A DNA stretch of 64,000 bases from a phage, in the NCBI GenBank assembly GCA_033286805.1, contig GCA_033286805.1_4727.1; one strand, 5' to 3'. This document shows positions 38,477 to 56,614 of the stretch, one piece after another (positions within the stretch are counted from its first letter, which is position 1; every line of letters begins with the position of its first letter). The position numbers and the translations under genes are program-made. The notes under the pieces were generated by a model. The model did not search any database. It worked only from the letters and a program-made list of their open reading frames with translations, and was not told the DNA's origin.

Positions 38477-38983
38477 TTACTTACTGATAACCTCAACGGA
38501 GTTGGGATCAGCGATCAATGCACGGTCGGTAGAACAATTGAAGAAGACCGTACCAACACCATCACCGTTCGAGTTCAGGGTTGAACTTGCGTAAGACAGG
38601 GTTGGTTTATTCATGCGGTAGAAGCGTTCGCTGGTTGCGGTATTGAACCCCAGGTCAACGTAGTCTTTCACCGTGGTATACAACTGGGTGGACTCGAAAA
38701 CGGTTACCGGAGAGTCGACGGTAAATTGACTGCCTTCGTCCACAACCAGAACTTTATCGTTCCAGATTTCAGTGGTTGAGAACTTCGGTTTCCAATGTTC
38801 GAATTCCTGGGTTGCACCCCAGCAAGAATACACAGCGAGATTGCTGTTCTTCTCGACAGGTTTCAACCCCACCAGTTGTGTCAGGTCTTTATCCAGGTTC
38901 GGTAAACCTTCCAGCGTAGCACACCCACCCAGAGAAAGCACCATTAGCATACCAAGAACGATCGCGCAAAGTTTCTTTGTCAT
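38477..38983 (-). CDS. putative lipoprotein
   Basis: Signal peptide with lipobox LSLGG-C (MTKKLCAIVLGMLMVLSLGGCAT); GAGGAAA SD. Confidence 0.65.
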   Translation of the reverse strand: MTKKLCAIVLGMLMVLSLGGCATLEGLPNLDKDLTQLVGLKPVEKNSNLAVYSCWGATQEFEHWKPKFSTTEIWNDKVLVVDEGSQFTVDSPVTVFESTQLYTTVKDYVDLGFNTATSERFYRMNKPTLSYASSTLNSNGDGVGTVFFNCSTDRALIADPNSVEVISK

Positions 38984-47668: not shown

Positions 47669-48499
47669 TTAATCGTAACTAAAATAAAGTTTGCTGCTGA
47701 CGCCGCTATCGGAATGAGGTTTTAATACCAGAACAGAGCTTCCGAACGACGGAAGTATTGGAACATCTAAATCGTTCGCATCGGCAACTTTTCCATTATA
47801 AACGACATTGGCTGTTGTGATGAGTTCCCAAGCTAAGGTATAACTCATTGAAATCAGCGACGAGGCTAAACGGAATGCGTTGTATCCTTCTGGAGTATCT
47901 CCAACCGACATCGAACGTATCGCATCTTGCGGTGGTAAATTTAGCTTGATGCCGTAGGTGCTGAATGTGTGGAAATCCCCTTGTTTACTATCTTCTGGAT
48001 AATACGAGGTTAGCGGTTCTCGCACCGTAATCAGTTCGCTAATATCGGTACTTACATCTTTTCGTGCGAGGAATTGAAACGTACCGTGCCATGATGCCGA
48101 TGCGTCAGAACGAACGGGAACAGATATGGTTTTCTCGCCGCTTTCAAATTTAACCTGTGATGCTAACGCTGAAGAATCAAAGATCGTTAAATCGATCTTC
48201 AACCCATATTTCTTAAACAGCTGCGTTAAGCAGTCTGCTATCGTCGTCTTATCAGCAACGACAATAAAAGGTTGGTGTTTGATAAAGAGCTTATTAATGT
48301 CTCGACGTTGAAGATAAACCTGTACGGGGTCTTCGACGTAGTAAACCGATTGTGGTGCGGGGGCTATAGAAAGGCGTAACCGACCCGATGCACCATACCA
48401 GGCTGGCGTTAACGTAACGTCTGACAGGGACAACGGATGCTGGAGATAGGCGTTTATTTTAGATAACACTTCCTCCTGCCATGATGCTTCAGGATACAT
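47669..48499 (-). CDS. hypothetical tail protein sharing the N-terminal domain
   Basis: N-terminal segment (LQRRDINKLF) weakly paralogous to the 34980 and 43326 products. Confidence 0.5.
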   Translation of the reverse strand: MYPEASWQEEVLSKINAYLQHPLSLSDVTLTPAWYGASGRLRLSIAPAPQSVYYVEDPVQVYLQRRDINKLFIKHQPFIVVADKTTIADCLTQLFKKYGLKIDLTIFDSSALASQVKFESGEKTISVPVRSDASASWHGTFQFLARKDVSTDISELITVREPLTSYYPEDSKQGDFHTFSTYGIKLNLPPQDAIRSMSVGDTPEGYNAFRLASSLISMSYTLAWELITTANVVYNGKVADANDLDVPILPSFGSSVLVLKPHSDSGVSSKLYFSYD

Positions 48500-48560
48500 G
48501 CTGACCTCATAGATGATCGTTGATAGGAAAGAGACCTAATTCATACCATGGGAACCTCAA

Positions 48561-48614
48561 AAAAAAAAACGAAAAATAGGGAAACGGTGTTCATCCTTTT
48601 TAGGGATGAACACC
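48561..48614 (-). terminator. rho-independent terminator (minus strand)
   Basis: Perfect stem CGGTGTTCATCC/GGATGAACACCG with loop TTTTTA; plus-strand A11 run gives a U-tract on the minus transcript. Confidence 0.75.
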
Positions 48615-48635
48615 GCGTACCGTTATATCGAACGA

Positions 48636-49211
48636 TTAGTAAGGAATCAGATCGTTAAGCTTTTCTTCTTCAACGACAAAGAAGTTGTTCTGGTCGTCTA
48701 AATCTGTTAACAGGACTTGTCCGACAGTAAAGCAGGTGCCGCCCTTCTTAGGTATCCATACCGGCTCATTCGTTACCTTATCGGGATACCATTTGAAACG
48801 ATTGGTATCCAAGAAGAACGCTGCTTTGTTCGCTTTATCGGTTGAACGATAGCTAACCAACGCAGGCCACTCAATCCAGGTGTTTGTGCATGGTACATGT
48901 AAAGGATACCATGCGCGCCAGCGTTTGCCTGGGTTGCTAGGATCAACCCAATACTCGGCAGTCAATACAGCATCTTTATAATGTTTCTGCATTAACATTT
49001 CGAGCACAAGCTCATTACCTTTTGATGCATCTAAAGTCACTTCCGTCATATAAAGAGATTTAGGTAACTCAGACTGTTTTGCGGGTGTTACAACACCGGT
49101 AACCAACGGTCTGCTCGGTTTACGTTTCTGTTCTTTCCGACGTGTGTAAAAGAATAGTCCGACAGATACAGCAACAAGTACAATAAACAACACTACCTTA
49201 ATCCAATTCAT
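48636..49211 (-). CDS. hypothetical membrane-anchored protein (N-terminal TM helix)
   Basis: MNWIKVVLFIVLVAVSVGLFFYTRRK; ATGA overlap with the upstream gene. Confidence 0.6.
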   Translation of the reverse strand: MNWIKVVLFIVLVAVSVGLFFYTRRKEQKRKPSRPLVTGVVTPAKQSELPKSLYMTEVTLDASKGNELVLEMLMQKHYKDAVLTAEYWVDPSNPGKRWRAWYPLHVPCTNTWIEWPALVSYRSTDKANKAAFFLDTNRFKWYPDKVTNEPVWIPKKGGTCFTVGQVLLTDLDDQNNFFVVEEEKLNDLIPY

Positions 49212-49948
49212 TCGTCAATGTCTCCTTCTGCAAACAGGGTCAATTTGATTTCGGGATCATAGAACATGGTGATCACACCATCTCGCTCTGCTGAACGCTG
49301 TGCTGTCCATATTAACTGTTCATCCCGAATATCAAACTTATACCGTTCGTCGCTAACCACCGCTTCCGCATCGACATAGTGATAAATGCCACCTTCAGGA
49401 TTCTCAATCCAACCACGTACCATCAGACGGTCTTTCTGCTTACGTGTGAAGAATCTATACGGATCTTCGCAGGTTTGCCAAACGTCACCGCTCTCGCTTA
49501 CCAGTTCGTCATACACCTTCGAAAGCTCGTCAGGCACTGGAATCAAAATGTTATCCTGATAGCCTGACCAGAAACGACGTACGTCTTGTAATAGATCGTC
49601 GCTTTGTAGTTTAACCACATGCGTGTGATTCGCAAAATCAGTTTTTGATTCGCTGAACCAAAACGCTTTTTCGTTCCCTACAACGACATCGATTCGATCA
49701 TGTTGAACACAAACCCACCCATAAATCCATCCGTAACCATCAACGTTATATAACGTTGTTTGGTAACTGACAATATCGATATCATCAAACGATGCTAATA
49801 AAGCTTTAGCCGCTAGAAGCGGGGAGAAGTTTTTCGATTGCGATGCTTTACGGATGTCTTCTTTGATGAGTAATTTACCGTGAATTGGATGTTCAATAAC
49901 AAAACCACAGGAGAGCATGATGCTTCCTTGATAACGTGCTTCTTGCAT
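49208..49948 (-). CDS. hypothetical protein
   Basis: 246-aa ORF, GAGGAA SD. Confidence 0.6.
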   Translation of the reverse strand: MQEARYQGSIMLSCGFVIEHPIHGKLLIKEDIRKASQSKNFSPLLAAKALLASFDDIDIVSYQTTLYNVDGYGWIYGWVCVQHDRIDVVVGNEKAFWFSESKTDFANHTHVVKLQSDDLLQDVRRFWSGYQDNILIPVPDELSKVYDELVSESGDVWQTCEDPYRFFTRKQKDRLMVRGWIENPEGGIYHYVDAEAVVSDERYKFDIRDEQLIWTAQRSAERDGVITMFYDPEIKLTLFAEGDIDE

Positions 49949-50065
49949 TTCTATTCCTCAAATAAAGATTGTCTTTTAACGCGACATGATTACAAGTACA
50001 CAGGTTACTGGATTTCTGTAAAAGTTAATTTTCGTAAACTAAAAGAAAATGTATCCGTGTTTCTT

Positions 50066-50102
50066 GGTTCTTCCCCTCCACAGCCTCAGGAAGAGAAGAA
50101 CC
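50066..50102. terminator. hairpin GGTTCTTC...GAAGAACC
   Basis: Inverted repeat downstream of the 50123-50380 gene. Confidence 0.5.
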
Positions 50103-50122
50103 GTTTGCTAAGTTGTTATGTA

Positions 50123-50380
50123 TTAAAATGCATTGATTGGACTGCTCAACGCTTTATCGCGGATTTGAATCGCCGCCAGCATTGCTTTCTGGTACGAATC
50201 GTAAGCATCAACAGAAACCGTCATATCAACCAATTTCTCTAATACGGATTCAGCCGCTTTTACACGAACGCGGAACTTGGTGATTGCGTTATCTTTGTTA
50301 CGATAAACCGTGATGTGGTGCAGCGGTTGAACGTTAGTTTTATTGGTTTTAACGGATTTAGTTGCTTTGATCGTTTTCAT
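50123..50380 (-). CDS. small basic hypothetical protein
   Basis: 85-aa ORF with strong GAAGGAAA SD. Confidence 0.5.
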   Translation of the reverse strand: MKTIKATKSVKTNKTNVQPLHHITVYRNKDNAITKFRVRVKAAESVLEKLVDMTVSVDAYDSYQKAMLAAIQIRDKALSSPINAF

Positions 50381-50434
50381 GATGATTTCCTTCTTTATTA
50401 GGATGATTACATTTAGTCAGTTTAACAGCATAAA

Positions 50435-50459
50435 CCCTTCCCGCCTTACGCAGGAAGGG
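50435..50459. terminator. hairpin CCCTTCC...GGAAGGG
   Basis: Left flank CATAAA; downstream of the endolysin gene stop. Confidence 0.55.
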
Positions 50460-50473
50460 CATACGGATTTGTT

Positions 50474-50971
50474 TTACGTGTGTCGTCGTTTACCAAAGAA
50501 AATGTGGCTGTCTACCACGGTGATATTGGTAGCATGTTTTCTGAAATGTTTAGGGCGAAGATGTTTCGCGTTAAAGAATACGGCTCCTCGTGTTGGGTCG
50601 GCTTTATGGTAAGCCGCAATGTCAGTATAACGTAATGTTGCGACCTCTCGTGCTATTGCTCTTGCTCGCTCAAAAGCAGCATGATCGCGTATGACAATAC
50701 GCCTTTGTTTTGTCCAGGGGAATTGACCTCTTTGCAGTACGACGTCTCTGACGTTCGTAGGGAATCGGTAGTCCATAGATCGATTATGTATTAAAAACGC
50801 CACGGAGTATTGCCCTTTTACAGATTCGCCTCTGGCTTCCATATACACCGCACATGCGACGATCTCTTTCCGGCAATCGATTCTAGGCCCTGCGTTCACT
50901 GATGCTTGACTGAACGGTGTAATAAGCAGCATAACAAGCCCTAAAATCAACGTGTGTAAAATACCTTGCAT
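50474..50971 (-). CDS. SleB-type cell wall hydrolase (putative endolysin) with N-terminal signal/SAR-like segment
   Basis: AVYMEARGE...SVAFLIHNR...DVVLQRGQF...GAVFFN matches the SleB/Hydrolase_2 signature; hydrophobic N-terminus MQGILHTLILGLVMLLITPFSQA. Confidence 0.75.
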   Translation of the reverse strand: MQGILHTLILGLVMLLITPFSQASVNAGPRIDCRKEIVACAVYMEARGESVKGQYSVAFLIHNRSMDYRFPTNVRDVVLQRGQFPWTKQRRIVIRDHAAFERARAIAREVATLRYTDIAAYHKADPTRGAVFFNAKHLRPKHFRKHATNITVVDSHIFFGKRRHT

Positions 50972-51223
50972 CTTAATAACCTCACGATAAGGTGCTGTCC
51001 ACTGGCGTCTTGATAACGCATCCCGTCATCGGGTTGTTCTATTCAGCGGGCAGCAGGTTAGCGTCAGATGTTTGCCCGACATCCACGACAGAAATAAACG
51101 GTACTGAAAATACGGTCTCCTCTGGTTTGGCAATAAACATAACGTTGGATAACAGAACCCATTTCCCGCATCCAACGCGGTAAAGGTGTACATCGTTTGA
51201 ATTCATATAGTTTCTCAAAGATG

Positions 51224-51535
51224 TTAACCTCTACCGTCGAGCCATAGGTTGTATTTATCCCGAATGTACGGATCACGATAAATACGTCGATAGACTTGAT
51301 GCGGTATAAACTTGCAATGTACGAGTTCGTCGCTTAATTTATGCCGTCGCTCCATACCGTTGTGAATACGACGTATCTCCCGGATATTAAAGGTTGTTTT
51401 ATTCAAGAGAATAGACATAATGGCGGATCGATGATCCAGATTAAAGATCGCCATCACGCTTCGTATCTCGCGTAAAACAACTTCTCTATCGACAAGGATG
51501 CGATTAGTTAACTTAAGATTCTCCGTGATACCCAT
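51224..51535 (-). CDS. hypothetical basic protein (start uncertain)
   Basis: ORF-track 134-aa ORF overlaps the upstream gene by ~116 nt; an internal ATG at 51535 with GAGG SD gives 103 aa. Confidence 0.35.
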   Translation of the reverse strand: MGITENLKLTNRILVDREVVLREIRSVMAIFNLDHRSAIMSILLNKTTFNIREIRRIHNGMERRHKLSDELVHCKFIPHQVYRRIYRDPYIRDKYNLWLDGRG

Positions 51536-51884
51536 AACCTTCATCCTCGACACGTCGACACATCGGTAAAAATAAACACCAGCTTGTTGCACTGAGGATC
51601 GCCGTTGCGATGATATTTGCGATATCACTCAATCGAGCATCGGCTTGCCACATAACAAGCATGAAAAGAACGTACGCGAACCCATACACGACAAACCGTC
51701 TGATGTTACGCGTCGACCACGTACAAATATACAAAAGGGGAAGCTGCCCTATAACACAAACGATGGTTCGGATAACGTAATAAACGCGTTCCGTCGTTGT
51801 TTCAAAATCGATATTCGTTGCAGAAATCCCAATCATTATAAAAGTGAAAATGAAATAGATTTTTGCGTATGTCTTTAAACTCAT
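51513..51884 (-). CDS. multi-pass membrane protein, holin candidate
   Basis: 123 aa with 3-4 hydrophobic segments, next to the endolysin. Confidence 0.5.
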   Translation of the reverse strand: MSLKTYAKIYFIFTFIMIGISATNIDFETTTERVYYVIRTIVCVIGQLPLLYICTWSTRNIRRFVVYGFAYVLFMLVMWQADARLSDIANIIATAILSATSWCLFLPMCRRVEDEGYGYHGES

Positions 51885-51900
51885 GGCTTTTCCCGATCGT

Positions 51901-52134
51901 TTATTTGTGTTTTCCTACATTCCTCAACAAGGTAACGATAACGAATACCGCTATCATCAAGAAGACGAACCATAACCCTACGTTAATTCGGGCAGCAGGT
52001 TCATCGACCATGAAGAACATCATCCCACAAAACCCAATGACCATCCATGCTAGAACCATCCCCGTTAATCCCCGTAGTAGCATATGTCCCATCATGAACT
52101 CCTTCTTACTTTTTCTGATAAAGCGATGATTCAA
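51901..52134 (-). CDS. small two-TM membrane protein, holin/antiholin candidate
   Basis: 77 aa, two hydrophobic helices, basic C-terminus. Confidence 0.5.
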   Translation of the reverse strand: MNHRFIRKSKKEFMMGHMLLRGLTGMVLAWMVIGFCGMMFFMVDEPAARINVGLWFVFLMIAVFVIVTLLRNVGKHK

Positions 52135-52268
52135 ATTTTAGAAACACCGCTAACGCGAATGCGAGTAATAACGCACGTACCCACATACCTCCTTGACAAC
52201 TGTTGTACAACATAAAGACCAGAGCAATGCCGCCCATATGTAGGCGGCACTTATCGAACAATGTTGGT

Positions 52269-52478
52269 TTATACATAAGAGATTAAACGTTGAATGATTT
52301 TTACTTTGCCTTTACCTGGACCTTTCTTGCGGCGATTCAACAGTCGGATACTGTTTCCAGTTACGGTGTCGCCATCATAATCAGCCCGGAACTGTGATAA
52401 AAAAGCAGGCTGTATCGGATCGACACCAGGATTGCTGTGGAAAGGATTGAGACTTAAAAGAGGGTTAGCTGGAATCAT
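52269..52478 (-). CDS. small hypothetical protein
   Basis: ORF-track start is TTG; ATG at 52478 with AAGGA SD gives 69 aa. Confidence 0.35.
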   Translation of the reverse strand: MIPANPLLSLNPFHSNPGVDPIQPAFLSQFRADYDGDTVTGNSIRLLNRRKKGPGKGKVKIIQRLISYV

Positions 52479-52496
52479 CGTATTGTCCTTACTCAA

Positions 52497-52847
52497 TTAT
52501 TTACCCAGATAGAGATATTCACCGCCCTGAACAACACCGGTTGCAGGATCAACAAGTATACGAACCCGCGCGTAGGTCTTGAAAGAGGGGTTGAAAACTT
52601 CGAAGTCTGCCACTTTCAATTTCACGCTGGGGTTGGTAGGGTTCTTAACTCCGGGAAGTTCTTTCGGGGTACCGAAATCAACACCGCATTCTTCAAGGTC
52701 TGCTGGCGTCATGCTCTCCATGGCCATGTAGATTGCTTTCGCTTTATCGTAAACTTCTGGGCTATCCAGCAATCCAGCCTGCGCTGAACCGACAACACTA
52801 CCGAACAGAATAGCAACAGCAACAAACAATTTAGTTAACGTTTTCAT
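52497..52847 (-). CDS. secreted/periplasmic hypothetical protein
   Basis: Signal peptide MKTLTKLFVAVAILFGSVVGSAQA; GAGGAAAA SD. Confidence 0.6.
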   Translation of the reverse strand: MKTLTKLFVAVAILFGSVVGSAQAGLLDSPEVYDKAKAIYMAMESMTPADLEECGVDFGTPKELPGVKNPTNPSVKLKVADFEVFNPSFKTYARVRILVDPATGVVQGGEYLYLGK

Positions 52848-52883
52848 GATATTTTCCTCGAAAGTAAAATGTTACAATACTTA

Positions 52884-53306
52884 TTAACGTACGGCCGCCA
52901 CACTGTTAGCGCATGCCTGAATATCATCGGTATTTACGATGATGGTTTCGTTAAACGCACGAATACGCGCACGACGTGCTTCTTTAAGGCTGGCGATTGC
53001 GCTAGCAGCTTGATCTGTATTCGCAAGGCTAATAACCGGGATCAAACGCATGTCAGGACTGCAGATATTCAATGCTTGGTATACACGTCCATTGATTCCT
53101 ACGGTATCAGACATCGGATAGTGCGCACGGCATTGAAATTGACCCATGACAACAAGCGAACGATCGGAGATACCAATCTGATAACGACCGTCTTCGCTGT
53201 AGGCGTAGCAGTTATTCCCACGAGCCATCCAGTTAGCCTGTGCTTGCGTGCTAACAAAAGCCAGGGTGGTGACGATAGCGAATACGATATTTTTGAACAG
53301 TTTCAT
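52884..53306 (-). CDS. secreted/periplasmic Cys-containing hypothetical protein
   Basis: Signal peptide MKLFKNIVFAIVTTLAFVSTQAQA; AAGGA SD. Confidence 0.6.
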   Translation of the reverse strand: MKLFKNIVFAIVTTLAFVSTQAQANWMARGNNCYAYSEDGRYQIGISDRSLVVMGQFQCRAHYPMSDTVGINGRVYQALNICSPDMRLIPVISLANTDQAASAIASLKEARRARIRAFNETIIVNTDDIQACANSVAAVR

Positions 53307-53341
53307 GATAAAGATCCTTATTGAAATAAAATCGGTATAAA

Positions 53342-53361
53342 GGCCCCCATTTAGGGGGACC
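53342..53361. terminator. hairpin GGCCCCC-ATTTA-GGGGGACC
   Basis: Left flank TATAAA; between the 53365 gene end and the 53306 gene start. Confidence 0.5.
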
Positions 53362-53364
53362 TGA

Positions 53365-53682
53365 TTAGTTTGCGCGTAAGAAATGACCCAGAACCGTTAC
53401 GATTGGAAACAGCCCTGTAACAGTATCATCGCCCGAAAACATCATCATTGTTCCGTTAACGGTGATGAAACGGATGTCGGTTGCGGACCCATCGATAGCG
53501 ACAAAACGCATCGAGTTCGGTGGAAGGTCCTCAACCACTTCCACGAGATACTCGCGATTATCAAAGGCTTCTTTAACACGACGCATGAAACGAATCAGTG
53601 TTCCTTCCGCGTCGGCTTCCAAATGACCTAAGATATCGCGATTATTACGAATAGCAAATACAGCCATTTTAAACATACACAT
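53365..53682 (-). CDS. hypothetical protein
   Basis: 105-aa ORF directly preceded by a conserved leader element. Confidence 0.55.
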   Translation of the reverse strand: MCMFKMAVFAIRNNRDILGHLEADAEGTLIRFMRRVKEAFDNREYLVEVVEDLPPNSMRFVAIDGSATDIRFITVNGTMMMFSGDDTVTGLFPIVTVLGHFLRAN

Positions 53683-53790
53683 CTTGACATCCTTTTATAT
53701 TGGATTGATTGCTAATAATTCAAGGTGAAGCTGATTACTGTATTGCTTCACCTAGGTAATATAGCCGTGAAAATTAATGTATTAACCTAT
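53683..53790 (-). promoter_or_regulatory. conserved leader/promoter-like element, copy 2
   Basis: cttgacatccttttatattggattgattgc ... cctaggtaatatagccgtgaaaattaa, matching the 27127-27244 copy. Confidence 0.5.
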
Positions 53791-54747
53791 TCACGCTTTT
53801 GCTGAGTAGGGTTGGATCTCATTAATTCGTTTAACCACAACCTCAGGGAAAAGTTTGAGTATCTCATCAGGTGGTATCGCACCTTCTGTCCAACGATAAC
53901 GTTCAACCATCTCGATGCGTGGACTCCCTCCGACGTCAGCGATACGAAAGATGCAGGCGATGCCTAAATCGAAGCATACGCTGTAAATATCTTCCGTACC
54001 TCCTTTATCTGCAAGTATTTTCGCAAAATGCTCGTTATCAGGAAGAATGGCTAAATTACGGATACACCAAACATTATTCCCCATTTCTTCAAGTTTTGGG
54101 TAGGTTAAAGTGTGCCCGTATTGTGTTAACCATCGATGATTTTCGAGGTAGAAGTCCTTATCTCCGGGTCGATAACTCCGTAACACCGCCGTGTAGAAGA
54201 GATTGGGCATATCGAGCAGTTCTTGAATCGTTGGACCCGTATGCTCCCAGAGACAGATTTGTTTACGGTCTATATCGTAATCTGTGACGTTACTCACCTC
54301 CCAACTTATCGTAAGTTCATCGGCAACATGCCAACCTAAAGCCTGTTCACCACCAAGCAGATTAACAATGGCTGTTATTTCATACTTGTCAAATACGCCT
54401 AAATTACGCGGCGGCTGCATCGTACGTAATGGCTCCCACAGCACACTGTAATCATAGAGCAAATGGCGACATAAACTTTTTGTTAGAGGTGTCTGTTCAG
54501 TGAACAGTGGAAGAATCACCGTATCCAATAACGGGCGTAACGGATGACCATTCGGTGGTAACGGGGCAGCCAGCCGACCTCCTTCTTTGGGGTAATCGAA
54601 ACCAAACCCGTAACGCTCCGAAATGAGTGCAATCAGCACTTTTGCTACGCGGTTACGTAGCATGCGATGGATGTCATCACTGTAACTGAATTTCGGTTTA
54701 TTACCGCAAACGAAGGTGAAGTATCTGGGCGTTAGCGCAGCCATCAT
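53791..54747 (-). CDS. hypothetical protein
   Basis: 318-aa ORF, GAGGGAAAG SD. Confidence 0.6.
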   Translation of the reverse strand: MMAALTPRYFTFVCGNKPKFSYSDDIHRMLRNRVAKVLIALISERYGFGFDYPKEGGRLAAPLPPNGHPLRPLLDTVILPLFTEQTPLTKSLCRHLLYDYSVLWEPLRTMQPPRNLGVFDKYEITAIVNLLGGEQALGWHVADELTISWEVSNVTDYDIDRKQICLWEHTGPTIQELLDMPNLFYTAVLRSYRPGDKDFYLENHRWLTQYGHTLTYPKLEEMGNNVWCIRNLAILPDNEHFAKILADKGGTEDIYSVCFDLGIACIFRIADVGGSPRIEMVERYRWTEGAIPPDEILKLFPEVVVKRINEIQPYSAKA

Positions 54748-54754
54748 CTTTCCC

Positions 54755-55201
54755 TCAATCTAAATAGTACGTGATGGATAGGTCTTTTCCATCGAATACG
54801 ATATCCGTGCAATCGTGGATCGTCGGTAATACCATTTTTGCTGCTATTGGGACGTATGCCTGCAGTTCCATGAAGTTATTCATGCGGAACGCACGACGTA
54901 CCATCAGCGGTGTTAGTGTAAACGTTACGCTGACGTTACCGCTTGGGAGCAGGTGCATTATCGCATGCCCGTGATCGCACCAGCAATGGTTTTCGATCCA
55001 TCCGGTGTAAATCAGAATATCTTTATCTTCGTCGTAATAAGCAATGCCGGTCTGCTTTAAGTGGCTGGTAAATCGAGAGGCTTGCTCGTAGCCTGCACGC
55101 AACATTCGAGCAACCAGTCGAGTATTGTTGGCGATTCGATTCTGTTCGTTGGTTTTTGTGGTTTTGAAAATTTCGATACGTTCTGCTTTTGTAATTTGCA
55201 T
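54755..55201 (-). CDS. hypothetical protein
   Basis: 148-aa ORF, AAGGA SD. Confidence 0.6.
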   Translation of the reverse strand: MQITKAERIEIFKTTKTNEQNRIANNTRLVARMLRAGYEQASRFTSHLKQTGIAYYDEDKDILIYTGWIENHCWCDHGHAIMHLLPSGNVSVTFTLTPLMVRRAFRMNNFMELQAYVPIAAKMVLPTIHDCTDIVFDGKDLSITYYLD

Positions 55202-55283
55202 GATTACTGTCCTTTTGAAATATGTTTAGATAAGGAGGATTTACCGGGTATTAAAAAGTTATTTGGTATGTAATGTTTTTTTT

Positions 55284-55883
55284 TTACTTAGGTTCCAGTA
55301 TTGGTCCGAACAACCAGAATGTCAGACGCTGGTAAACCTGTTCGATGACTGCGGCTTCTGTTTGCTCTTCTAGCGCTTTCCCTTTCTTATGTTGTATTTC
55401 TGGCGGGATGTCGCCGTTGTAAACATACCCTGCTGAGAAGTCCCACGCCAGCCGTTTACCGAAAGTAGGTAAGAACACCTCTTCGAATCGGAACGCTTTC
55501 GAATTCCAATGAAGCAGCTGATCGGATTCAACATGTAAAGCTTTATTACGTTTGCTTGGCATGTTTCCGAAGTACTGAACGATAGCTGATTTCATAACCC
55601 GATCTGCGAAGTCTTTGGCTTCGACCTCATCGAGGGGAGGCAGACGATGCGATAGATTCAGCTTGCGTTGTTCAACATCTATCTTACGCATCGCTTTAAT
55701 CAAATCACCAGGAACGATTTTACCCTTATGGCCTTCCTGTCGGTGTATGAAACACCCCTGGAATAGCACGCAAAGTTCTTGAGGTGCTGTACTTTCCATT
55801 CGTCCGTAAGCAACGATCACCGAACGACGACGATCAATAACTTCGCGGATAAACCGCGGCTCAGTAATACTCACCACTGTCAT
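55284..55883 (-). CDS. hypothetical protein
   Basis: 199-aa ORF, AGAGGG SD. Confidence 0.6.
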   Translation of the reverse strand: MTVVSITEPRFIREVIDRRRSVIVAYGRMESTAPQELCVLFQGCFIHRQEGHKGKIVPGDLIKAMRKIDVEQRKLNLSHRLPPLDEVEAKDFADRVMKSAIVQYFGNMPSKRNKALHVESDQLLHWNSKAFRFEEVFLPTFGKRLAWDFSAGYVYNGDIPPEIQHKKGKALEEQTEAAVIEQVYQRLTFWLFGPILEPK

Positions 55884-55927
55884 TTAAAGCCCTCTTTATC
55901 TTTTTCCATTTCTCTTTACATAACCAC

Positions 55928-56614
55928 TTAAGACGTTGCCATCTTATCTTCCAGAGACTTCTTCGGTAAACCATGGATAACTCCTTCCGGGGTTAAGAAC
56001 ACACAGTCTGGATTCTGCGTTCGCGAACGGTCTTCTGGGCTGTTCAACGAGAACAGCAACGCAGAAATACCTTTTGTCCGATTTAACGTTGCGACGATCA
56101 CATCAAGCTGCCGTAGCGCATCCGATACCGTTCGATGAGGAACGATTCGCGACTGTTTGAAGCTGGCTAACCGCCAAGTCTCGAACAAACAACGCAGTTT
56201 AAACACGTCGGACGGAATAGCTGTAGATCCCTGTTCGATAACCTCAACCCGATCAGCTTCAGGATAACCTACAGCAACCGCACTAAAGTGTCTTACCCCA
56301 TTATGAAAATCATTGATAGACGCTTCGGCGTATTTACATACCGTACCAGAAACGACCATCACTTTTGCTAAACCGCGATAATTGATCGTTAACGGAATAC
56401 GAAATACACGTAAAGCATGTTCCGGATTTAATGAGACGTCATTCACTTTCGCAGATACCAGCGCACCTCGTTCATATCGAGCTTTGAACGGCAGCCCATT
56501 ATAAACGGGGTTGATTACAACGCCCCCTGGGGAGGCGTTAGCGTTAAGATGAGTGTTAAGCCAATCGGATACTTCCTGCCTGCTGGTTACGATTAACATA
56601 AAACGGTCCTCCAT
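55928..56614 (-). CDS. hypothetical protein
   Basis: Start moved to ATG 56614 with GAAGGAAAAG SD, avoiding overlap with the methyltransferase gene. Confidence 0.55.
   Translation of the reverse strand: MEDRFMLIVTSRQEVSDWLNTHLNANASPGGVVINPVYNGLPFKARYERGALVSAKVNDVSLNPEHALRVFRIPLTINYRGLAKVMVVSGTVCKYAEASINDFHNGVRHFSAVAVGYPEADRVEVIEQGSTAIPSDVFKLRCLFETWRLASFKQSRIVPHRTVSDALRQLDVIVATLNRTKGISALLFSLNSPEDRSRTQNPDCVFLTPEGVIHGLPKKSLEDKMATS

Follow-up and report, generated by a model that had tools for sequence, protein, structure and literature searches.

A conserved, structured RNA leader upstream of a SleB-type hydrolase gene in a probable lysis gene cluster of a Goslar-like nucleus-forming phage

The 64,000-nt stretch of phage DNA analyzed here (GenBank assembly GCA_033286805.1, contig GCA_033286805.1_4727.1; hereafter "the window") carries on its minus strand, at positions 53306–50474, a gene cluster that probably serves host lysis in a Goslar-like nucleus-forming phage. 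The last gene of this block encodes a SleB-type cell-wall hydrolase, and the 272 nt directly preceding it (51243–50972) form the best-conserved and most structured segment of the neighborhood; that this segment is a conserved structured RNA is well supported. We consider the chances even that this leader acts in cis to control the expression of the hydrolase and that the block carries out, or contributes to, lysis. The earlier note on this DNA had described 50972–51223 as lacking a convincing open reading frame (ORF) and had suggested a regulatory RNA or a short gene as its possible content. The RNA part of that suggestion stands; an ORF is also present, contrary to the first statement, but its substitutions are not those of a protein gene. 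The leader and the gene that follows it comprise the following features.

50972–51243, minus strand: structured RNA leader, 272 nt (fold energy, conservation, and consensus fold)
51142–51178, minus strand: hairpin H3 of the leader, 15 bp, with one compensatory pair
51044–51069, minus strand: 5′ arm of helix 6, formed by the last nine codons of ORF55b
50979–51004, minus strand: 3′ arm of helix 6, including the GAGG of the hydrolase gene (50983–50980)
51039–51206, minus strand: ORF55b, 55 codons plus TAG, with a weak Shine–Dalgarno (SD) sequence; possibly a translated leader ORF
50474–50971, minus strand: SleB/Hydrolase_2-type cell-wall hydrolase, 165 aa (Pfam, PHROG, SleB alignment, and N-terminal hydropathy)

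A 4.5-kb query around the block shared 94.5% nucleotide identity with Escherichia phage vB_EcoM_Goslar, a member of the genus Goslarvirus and a jumbo phage that forms a nucleus and infects Escherichia coli. The gp098–gp104 region of Goslar (NC_048170, 110508–113340) is orthologous to the block and has the same gene order, which over the wider region is that of Goslar gp095–gp106. The counterpart of the 252-bp gap between gp098 and gp099 is present in Goslar and is 99.6% identical to the window, and the Goslar annotation contains neither ORF55b, nor any RNA feature, nor the gene for a 56-aa membrane protein described below.

Conservation and predicted folding of the leader

Seventeen related copies of the region were collected from Goslar, IMG/VR, Logan/ENA/NCBI contigs, and JGI/ENA metagenomes (in the 20-mer scan of the metagenomes, three of nine matches were by chance). 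In 18 Goslar-like genomes, 180–182 of the 182 positions of a core segment (51223–51042) were identical, whereas the hydrolase gene was 84–99% identical to that of the window among the same copies. The high identity begins approximately 20–35 nt inside the 3′ end of the preceding gp099-like gene, stops at the stop codon of ORF55b, and resumes in the approximately 35 nt before the hydrolase ATG; the approximately 40 nt between are variable, and in locus L005 this linker is replaced by an unrelated, shorter sequence. Only 7 of the 182 core columns varied, compared with 65 of 495 in the hydrolase gene (Fisher p = 2e−4), in which 41 of the 165 third codon positions were variable. Of 103 scan windows in a 7.8-kb alignment of seven genomes, the two on the leader were the least variable, with 5–6 variable columns in 180 nt, whereas the median was 36. 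The leader is single-copy in Goslar (blastn), and no copy was present in other phages or in 5,426 E. coli genomes.

The sense RNA of 51243–50972 has a minimum free energy (MFE) of −98.4 kcal/mol, and its MFE structure coincides with the centroid. This energy corresponds to z = −5.8, with none of 200 dinucleotide shuffles reaching as low a value, versus z = −2.8 for the antisense strand. Among 118 scan windows of the same length over the 64 kb, evaluated with a cruder control and fewer shuffles, the leader again had the lowest score (z = −5.1), against a genome background that averaged −0.72 ± 1.24 and went no lower than −4.2. The RNAalifold consensus consists of a four-way-junction domain (51242–51074) followed by a long-helix domain (51069–50979) that ends at the SD sequence of the hydrolase gene. 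The helix closing the junction uses the last codons of the gp099-like gene, which supply the 5′ strands for helices 1 and 2; the AUG of ORF55b is located in the apical loop of helix 2. In hairpin H3, the pair 51171/51149 occurs as a series from A-U through G·U to G-C, the sole full compensatory change, and a change from G·U to A-U is found at 51165. In total, 11 substitutions fall on positions predicted to be paired, and 8 of them leave the pair intact, in most cases as G·U, which is tolerated only in the sense RNA.

The element closest to the hydrolase gene is helix 6, a nearly continuous duplex of 21 bp, the 3′ arm of which takes in the hydrolase SD sequence and the 5′ arm of which (51069–51044) ends 3 nt before the stop codon of ORF55b (51041–51039). 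Its duplex energy was −24.9 kcal/mol, compared with −12.0 ± 3.3 kcal/mol for shuffled arms, and was matched by only 1 of 2000 of them; within 1.5 kb upstream, the 5′ arm is the best pairing partner of the SD region. Both arms were invariant in all 12 aligned sequences, and the region that they enclose varies. The AGG of the SD sequence was predicted to be paired in every variant (P(unpaired) ≤ 0.11 in seven variants), and removal of the 5′ arm in silico raised P(unpaired) of the GAGG to 0.08–0.71.

Searches for known elements gave no further assignment. An Rfam scan (E ≤ 1) of 48000–56000 on both strands gave no match, ARAGORN found no tRNA or tmRNA in the whole window, and a scan of the leader for sigma-70 promoters and terminators found none, with counts at or below the shuffle expectation. 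An octamer resembling the consensus of phiKZ early promoters, TATATTAC, occurred once, against 1.9 expected occurrences, and was rejected as a motif here.

The hydrolase and the other genes of the block

The 165-aa hydrolase matched Pfam Hydrolase_2 (PF07486) over the full profile (positions 1–100 of 100) with E = 3.7e−16 and 60 bits (cut-off 27), and PHROG 938, "endolysin," with E = 5e−16; its other PHROG matches were also labeled as endolysins. It aligned with the catalytic domain of Bacillus SleB (PDB 4F55/4FET), with avyMEARGE facing avyGESRGE (which Glu of this motif is catalytic was presumed from SleB structures). RefSeq labels the Goslar orthologue gp098 an endolysin with a Hydrolase_2 domain, and the papers on the Goslar virion structure and on ChmC make no mention of gp098. 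Homologues are encoded in 926 phage records.

The hydrophobic N-terminus that the earlier note had described for this enzyme was also found (GILHTLILGLVMLLITPFS, Kyte–Doolittle hydropathy 1.97 in a 19-residue window). Signal peptides were called heuristically, from hydropathy and the pattern of n-, h-, and c-regions. In the h-region, GILHTLILGLVMLLITPF, Gly, Ala, Ser, or Thr occupy 4 of 18 residues, and the c-region, TPFSQA↓SV, has Ser at −3, Ala at −1, and Pro at −5, so that a cut at SQA↓SV is predicted; the strongly hydrophobic segment before the c-region takes up the first 23 or so residues. Because of this low G/A/S/T content and the SQA↓S site, the N-terminus looks cleavable rather than like a signal-anchor-release (SAR) sequence. 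A SAR endolysin was considered and rejected on the same heuristic grounds, the h-region (4/18 G/A/S/T, mean hydropathy 1.97) being followed directly by SQA↓SV. Canonical signal peptides are found in the homologues of Salmonella phage Arash and E. coli phage A73, both of which also carry a Cys right in front of the catalytic motif.

A pair of cysteines, Cys33 and Cys40, directly precedes the YMEARGE motif of the window hydrolase. A second Cys is likewise found upstream in the secreted SleB-like hydrolases of phages, with the spacing CxxxxxxC in the window and in Arash and a wider one in A73 (the Arash and A73 genes are at 1923–2372 of locus L022 and 1480–1995 of locus L023), and the aligned residue of Bacillus SleB is not a Cys. 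From the sequence, Cys33 and Cys40 may form a periplasmic disulfide with a structural or regulatory role.

All genes of the block are co-oriented and tightly spaced or overlapping. Upstream of the leader they are as follows, together with the hairpins at the two boundaries.

53341–53362, minus strand: upstream boundary hairpin, GC-rich and followed by UUUAU; terminator-like, after the gp105-like gene (sequence and fold)
52884–53306, minus strand: gp104-like secreted protein, 140 aa, with signal peptide MKLFKNIVFAIVTTLAFVSTQAQA of n-h-c pattern ending in AQA
52497–52847, minus strand: gp103-like secreted protein, 116 aa, with an n-h-c signal peptide ending in SAQA
52269–52478, minus strand: gp102-like soluble protein, 69 aa, with a cationic C-terminus
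52106–52276, minus strand: membrane protein of 56 aa with two hydrophobic segments (hydropathy); holin or antiholin candidate
51901–52092, minus strand: gp101-like protein, 63 aa, with two transmembrane domains (TMDs) and a basic C-terminal tail; class II holin or pinholin-like candidate
51513–51884, minus strand: gp100-like protein, 123 aa, with about four TMDs (hydropathy); hypervariable
51224–51535, minus strand: gp099-like basic (+8), helical, cytoplasmic protein, 103 aa; fast-evolving
50434–50460, minus strand: downstream boundary hairpin, strong and followed by UUUAUGCUGUU; terminator-like (sequence and fold)

Because terminator-like hairpins (the upstream one with the sequence GGUCCCCC-UAAAUG-GGGGGCC) flank both ends, 53306–50474 is a plausible transcription unit, and we infer that its genes are co-transcribed. 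Every ORF of the block is under purifying selection (pN/pS 0.0–0.58 against two relatives). The two proteins with signal peptides that the earlier note had reported are the gp104-like and gp103-like proteins; pN/pS was 0.11–0.19 for the former and 0.00–0.09, the minimum of the block, for the latter. Its count of two small membrane proteins, by contrast, was too low: the hydropathy profiles identified three (56 aa with two TMDs, 63 aa with two TMDs, and 123 aa with about four), and the block also encodes two soluble proteins (69 and 103 aa). None of the eight non-hydrolase proteins belongs to a credible Pfam or PHROG family. The AlphaFold2 models of the gp104-like and gp099-like proteins had pLDDT confidence scores of 63 and 61.5, respectively, and neither gave a Foldseek match to the PDB with E < 0.1.

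Among the membrane proteins, the 63-aa protein has the layout of a class II holin or pinholin, being small, with two TMDs and a charged C-terminus, and encoded with an endolysin-type enzyme. Its hydrophobic segments have hydropathy values of 2.16 and 2.91, its tail is RNVGKHK, its pN/pS is 0.09–0.25, and its gene is present in every related locus spanning its position. The 56-aa protein shares the layout with two hydrophobic segments; its gene (pN/pS 0.11–0.27), the start of which overlaps the stop of the gp102-like gene, is unannotated in the Goslar RefSeq record and is gene-called in L007. These two and the 123-aa protein are thus candidates for holin roles as judged from their sequences. 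The cationic C-terminal 25 or so residues of the gp102-like protein (RLLNRRKKGPGKGKVKIIQRLISYV) were identical in every copy read, and in one relative, L009 (3977–4267), its N-terminal half is replaced. Disruptins are a type of membrane-active peptide, and the gp102-like protein could, speculatively, be of this type in a phage that lacks spanins.

The alleles of the gp100-like gene encode proteins only 44–56% identical in genomes that are otherwise more than 90% identical. The gene is absent from L003 and L004, has an N-terminal extension in L007, and is accompanied by an additional paralogue in L013; the gp099-like gene ranges from 59 to 98% nucleotide identity to the window among related copies. 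This diversity hot spot (gp100-like and gp099-like genes; loci L003, L007, and L012–L014) directly adjoins the most conserved segment, and a hypervariable slot for a membrane protein may mark phage–phage or phage–host conflict.

In agreement with the earlier note, no spanin pair was detected: a heuristic six-frame lipobox scan, which covered the window and the Goslar sequence pieced together from individual loci, gave no o- or u-spanin candidate in the cassette. A spanin reading of two overlapping 55-codon ORFs was also rejected, as neither has a hydrophobic segment and the cassette has no lipobox candidate. The lipobox scan yielded a single convincing lipoprotein, a 168-aa protein (38477–38983, minus strand) with neither a C-terminal hydrophobic segment nor a partner. 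The gene for this lipoprotein (MTKKLCAIVLGMLMVLSLGGC, followed by A) is directly downstream of tail-fiber assembly and tail-fiber genes. Llp/Cor-type proteins, as in T5, act in exclusion by blocking the receptor, and the 168-aa lipoprotein, by its position, resembles such a protein rather than a spanin.

Further observations concern the surroundings of the block. Counterparts of Goslar gp096 and gp108 are lacking near it: gp096, of approximately 500 bp, is missing from between the gp095-like and the gp097-like gene at approximately 50036 of the window and gp108 (approximately 420 bp) at approximately 55281, and counterparts of both occur in some metagenomic relatives as genes for 166-aa and 137/138-aa proteins (L007, L009, L011, and L014). 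Strong hairpins are also present in neighboring intergenic regions, namely at 53683–53790 (minus strand; GGUGAAGC...GCUUCACC), before the gp105-like gene, and at 49949–50122 (minus strand), where a 14-bp stem follows the gp097-like gene; these are probably terminators or structures of 5′ untranslated regions. Goslar-like contigs of 190–248 kb were found in bacterial assemblies labeled as E. coli or Salmonella, for example, L010 (GCA_039634085.1, an E. coli assembly) and P0012, which is consistent with published lytic phage genomes hidden in bacterial assemblies.

Possible mode of action and alternative explanations

We propose that a SleB-family muralytic enzyme would be exported to the periplasm through a cleavable Sec-type signal peptide, in which case no holin-made hole would be needed for its export. 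The 63-aa and 56-aa proteins, and perhaps the protein with four TMDs, would act as holin-, pinholin-, or antiholin-type triggers. The leader would set the amount and timing of hydrolase translation through a chain of translational coupling from the gp099-like gene to ORF55b and from ORF55b to the hydrolase gene: ribosomes finishing the gp099-like gene would melt helices 1 and 2, making the start of ORF55b accessible, and those finishing ORF55b would open helix 6 and free the SD sequence of the hydrolase gene. Tight control would make biological sense because the enzyme is predicted to be exported without a holin. In nucleus-forming phages, transcription is described as spatially separated from translation (PMC12908238); on that description, mRNAs made away from ribosomes could fold their leaders fully before being translated.

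Several observations weigh against this account. The n-region of the hydrolase (MQG) contains no Lys or Arg, unlike that expected of a cleavable Sec signal. The SD–anti-SD energy of ORF55b is −2.7 kcal/mol, compared with −4.3 to −8.3 kcal/mol in most genes of the block, and this SD sequence is itself in a stem. Three changes break pairs in helix 5, and with so little variation the covariation statistics, which include one compensatory pair, were not significant (80 of 500 shuffles were as good). Opening the hydrolase initiation region (−16 to +3) would take 5.6 kcal/mol, which ranks 20th among 41 genes of the window and equals their median, because the SD sequence is at the frayable end of helix 6; the modeled occlusion of the ribosome-binding site is therefore not exceptional. 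Control of the SD sequence also accounts only for helix 6 and not for the invariance of the 169-nt junction domain (51242–51074). It is conceivable, if quite improbable, that this domain represents a structured regulatory RNA of a new class, specific to Goslar-like nucleus-forming phages, and that as a sensor or a switch bound by a protein it times hydrolase production, and with it lysis, instead of passively masking the ribosome-binding site. Such a switch could respond to a metabolite, to temperature, or to a factor of the phage or the host, for example, the basic, rapidly evolving gp099-like protein encoded just upstream, and would exploit the separation of transcription from translation.

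Finally, a second annotated endolysin, gp024, is encoded in Goslar (NC_048170, 17700–18335; locus L016, outside the window). It combines Glyco_hydro_108 and PG_binding_3 domains, lacks a signal sequence, and sits among virion structural genes. Because gp024 exists, the SleB-type enzyme is not established as "the endolysin." The lysis cassette proposed in the earlier note is reasonable in view of the label of gp098, the small membrane and secreted neighbors within a block bounded by terminator-like hairpins, and the comparable gene pairing in the Vequintavirinae described below. The SleB-type enzyme may not be the sole lysin, and its sequence leaves a main, a second, or a non-lytic role undecided. 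A large tail protein of Goslar, gp204, also contains a lysozyme-type domain.

Whether the conserved stretch is simply a small protein gene, ORF55b, which was missed by RefSeq and whose product (e.g., a lysis regulator) is functional while the RNA structure is incidental, can be judged from the ORF itself, and we think it unlikely. Gene tables of 11 related contigs extend over the region, and 9 of them list ORF55b as a gene; ORF55b is not in the Goslar RefSeq record and is the best of the three frames in codon usage (+0.20, like other cassette genes). The conservation ends at its stop codon, the position of which is the same in L005 despite local divergence (TAG to TAA), 4 of its 9 variable sites are at third codon positions, and its start, 17 nt after the gp099 stop, suits coupling. 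However, three of the variable sites are synonymous and six non-synonymous (eight when the database variant P0004 is counted), and this ratio points to constraint on the nucleotide sequence rather than on the peptide. The resulting dN/dS of approximately 0.65–0.85 exceeds the 0.1–0.5 of neighboring genes, and its synonymous sites are approximately 3.5-fold less variable than those of the hydrolase gene, which is beyond what protein selection can produce. The conservation also covers approximately 35 nt upstream of the ORF55b ATG and the downstream SD region, and z = −5.8 would be an odd coincidence if the stretch were merely protein-coding. In addition to its weak SD sequence, ORF55b has no Pfam match, and an exhaustive phmmer search of 1.84 billion representatives found homologues only in Goslar-like phages; three other matches (an fn3 array and two low-complexity repeat proteins) were rejected as tandem-repeat artifacts with scores summed over repeats. 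If ORF55b is translated, this would be as a leader ORF. Within 51218–51064, stops are missing from all three sense frames and from one antisense frame over approximately 150 nt; a second sense ORF (51193–51026) keeps its stop position in every aligned copy through different codons (TGA/TAG), and its substitutions do not look protein-like. ORF55a, in the +1 frame, and ORF70 were rejected as real genes because of poor codon usage and radical substitutions.

The existence of gp024 raises the possibility, which we find doubtful, that lysis is carried out by this cytoplasmic GH108 enzyme with another holin and that the SleB block has a different role at the envelope, such as peptidoglycan remodeling in the swelling cell, superinfection exclusion, or that of an accessory or back-up lysin. 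The architecture of gp024 is that of a standard soluble endolysin, the block has no spanin, and the hypervariability of the gp100-like and gp099-like genes is a pattern typical of conflict or exclusion genes; Pectobacterium phage CB7 likewise carries a SleB-like protein together with a further candidate lysin (PMC7344957). However, gp024 could be particle-associated, given its place among virion structural genes with no small membrane proteins annotated next to it, whereas a muralytic enzyme beside three small TMD proteins is the classic signature of a lysis cassette, and the SleB-like homologues of CB7 and of Cronobacter phage CR3 are toxic in E. coli and linked to lysis, respectively (PMC7344957). 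A rather improbable alternative, which concerns the leader only, is that it works like that of T4 gene e or as an RNase III site, silencing read-through transcripts, with expression turned on by a late promoter or a processing cut between the arms of helix 6 instead of by ORF55b translation. RNase III cuts long, near-continuous duplexes, and helix 6, with its 21 bp, is of this kind; within the leader, only the apical region of approximately 40 nt evolves freely. The T4 lysozyme gene provides a precedent (PMC3014915), and full folding of leaders before translation, as the description in PMC12908238 would allow, also suits this alternative. However, no TATG of phiKZ-type late promoters (PMC4666361) lies between the arms, the two TATGs of the leader being upstream of the 5′ arm, the leader contains no sigma-70-like site (the promoter rules of Goslar itself may differ), and the opening energy of the ribosome-binding site is merely average.

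We regard it as highly improbable that the core acts as a DNA site (a promoter or operator array, or a site for replication or packaging) or a trans-acting small RNA, or that it reflects a recombinational sweep. Near-total invariance with little covariation leaves the structure statistically unproven, and the left boundary of the core is the mosaic junction of swapped gp099/gp100 alleles, as such explanations would have it. However, the core has no iterons or notable repeats, is present once in Goslar and not in other phages or the E. coli genomes, and is not followed by a terminator that would define a discrete small RNA; moreover, the folding signal is strand-specific (−5.8 versus −2.8), and the changes that create G·U pairs are neutral only in the sense RNA. 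The substitutions in the core are common to groups of genomes (L003/L004/L031 and L008/L010/L014/L015), which indicates slow vertical change rather than a recent sweep. A cis-acting leader on the sense RNA that controls the hydrolase gene remains our preferred explanation.

Comparison with known lysis systems

Lysis has been worked out in only one nucleus-forming jumbo phage, phiKZ, in which the cassette gp141/141.1/142/143/144 consists of an i-spanin, an o-spanin, a class III holin, a cytoplasmic regulator, and a transglycosylase (PMC12894885). Both phiKZ and the Goslar-like phages are chimalliviruses, and in both, a clustered cassette ends in a muralytic enzyme and a cytoplasmic protein is encoded between the membrane protein or proteins and the enzyme. 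In contrast, the Goslar-like enzyme belongs to a different family and has a predicted export signal, spanins are lacking, and the membrane proteins have two or four TMDs, whereas the phiKZ holin is a class III protein with one TMD. When the five phiKZ lysis proteins were compared with the window and the Goslar loci (tblastn), no homologue was found (best E = 0.24, others ≥ 0.6). The Goslar-like parts thus appear to be unrelated to those of phiKZ, suggesting that the family of nucleus-forming phages has no single lysis strategy.

The closest resemblance is to a module of the Vequintavirinae, represented by CB7 gp83/gp82, E. coli A73_73/74, and Cronobacter CR3/CR9, and we regard the cassette as a member of this known type, in which a secreted SleB-type hydrolase is combined with small holin-like proteins. 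In CB7, a member of the Vequintavirinae, a SleB-like protein with a signal peptide is toxic in E. coli and its gene is overlapped by that of a class II holin candidate; the CR3 homologue has been linked to lysis, and the further candidate lysin of CB7 is encoded elsewhere in its genome (PMC7344957). The Vequintavirinae and Goslar-like modules share the Hydrolase_2 domain, an N-terminal signal peptide (a predicted one in the window enzyme), the Cys just before YxEARGE, and a small protein with two TMDs alongside. They differ in sequence, the hydrolases being only 29–46% identical in amino acids, and in layout: in the Vequintavirinae, the gene for the protein with two TMDs (70 aa in A73) overlaps the 3′ end of the hydrolase gene, whereas the membrane protein genes of the window are upstream, and loci of the Vequintavirinae type have no long leader (the spacer is 22 nt in Salmonella phage Arash), whereas a 272-nt structured leader intervenes in the window.

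In its predicted holin-independent export, the window hydrolase can be likened to Sec-exported and SAR endolysins, although its fold is of the SleB type and not T4-lysozyme-like. Such endolysins, among them Lys44 of Oenococcus phage fOg44 (Sec) and Lyz of P1 and R21 of phage 21 (SAR), reach the periplasm without a holin hole, and their timing is set by de-energization of the membrane by a holin or pinholin, or by control of expression. The leader described here may thus be a place where the timing of lysis is controlled post-transcriptionally, in phages whose mRNAs may fold before they meet ribosomes. The analysis also flags two genes missing from the reference annotation.

For such control there is a precedent in T4, in which the ribosome-binding sites of gene e, soc, gene 49, and I-TevI are hidden in RNA helices (PMC3014915). 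In both T4 gene e and the window, an RNA helix upstream of a cell-wall hydrolase gene takes in its SD sequence (PMC3014915), and the presumed purpose common to both is to avoid premature lysis. The window leader differs from that of gene e in that no internal late promoter was found in it and its predicted occlusion energy is only average; it is also far larger, with 272 nt and a four-way junction, and contains a 55-codon ORF.

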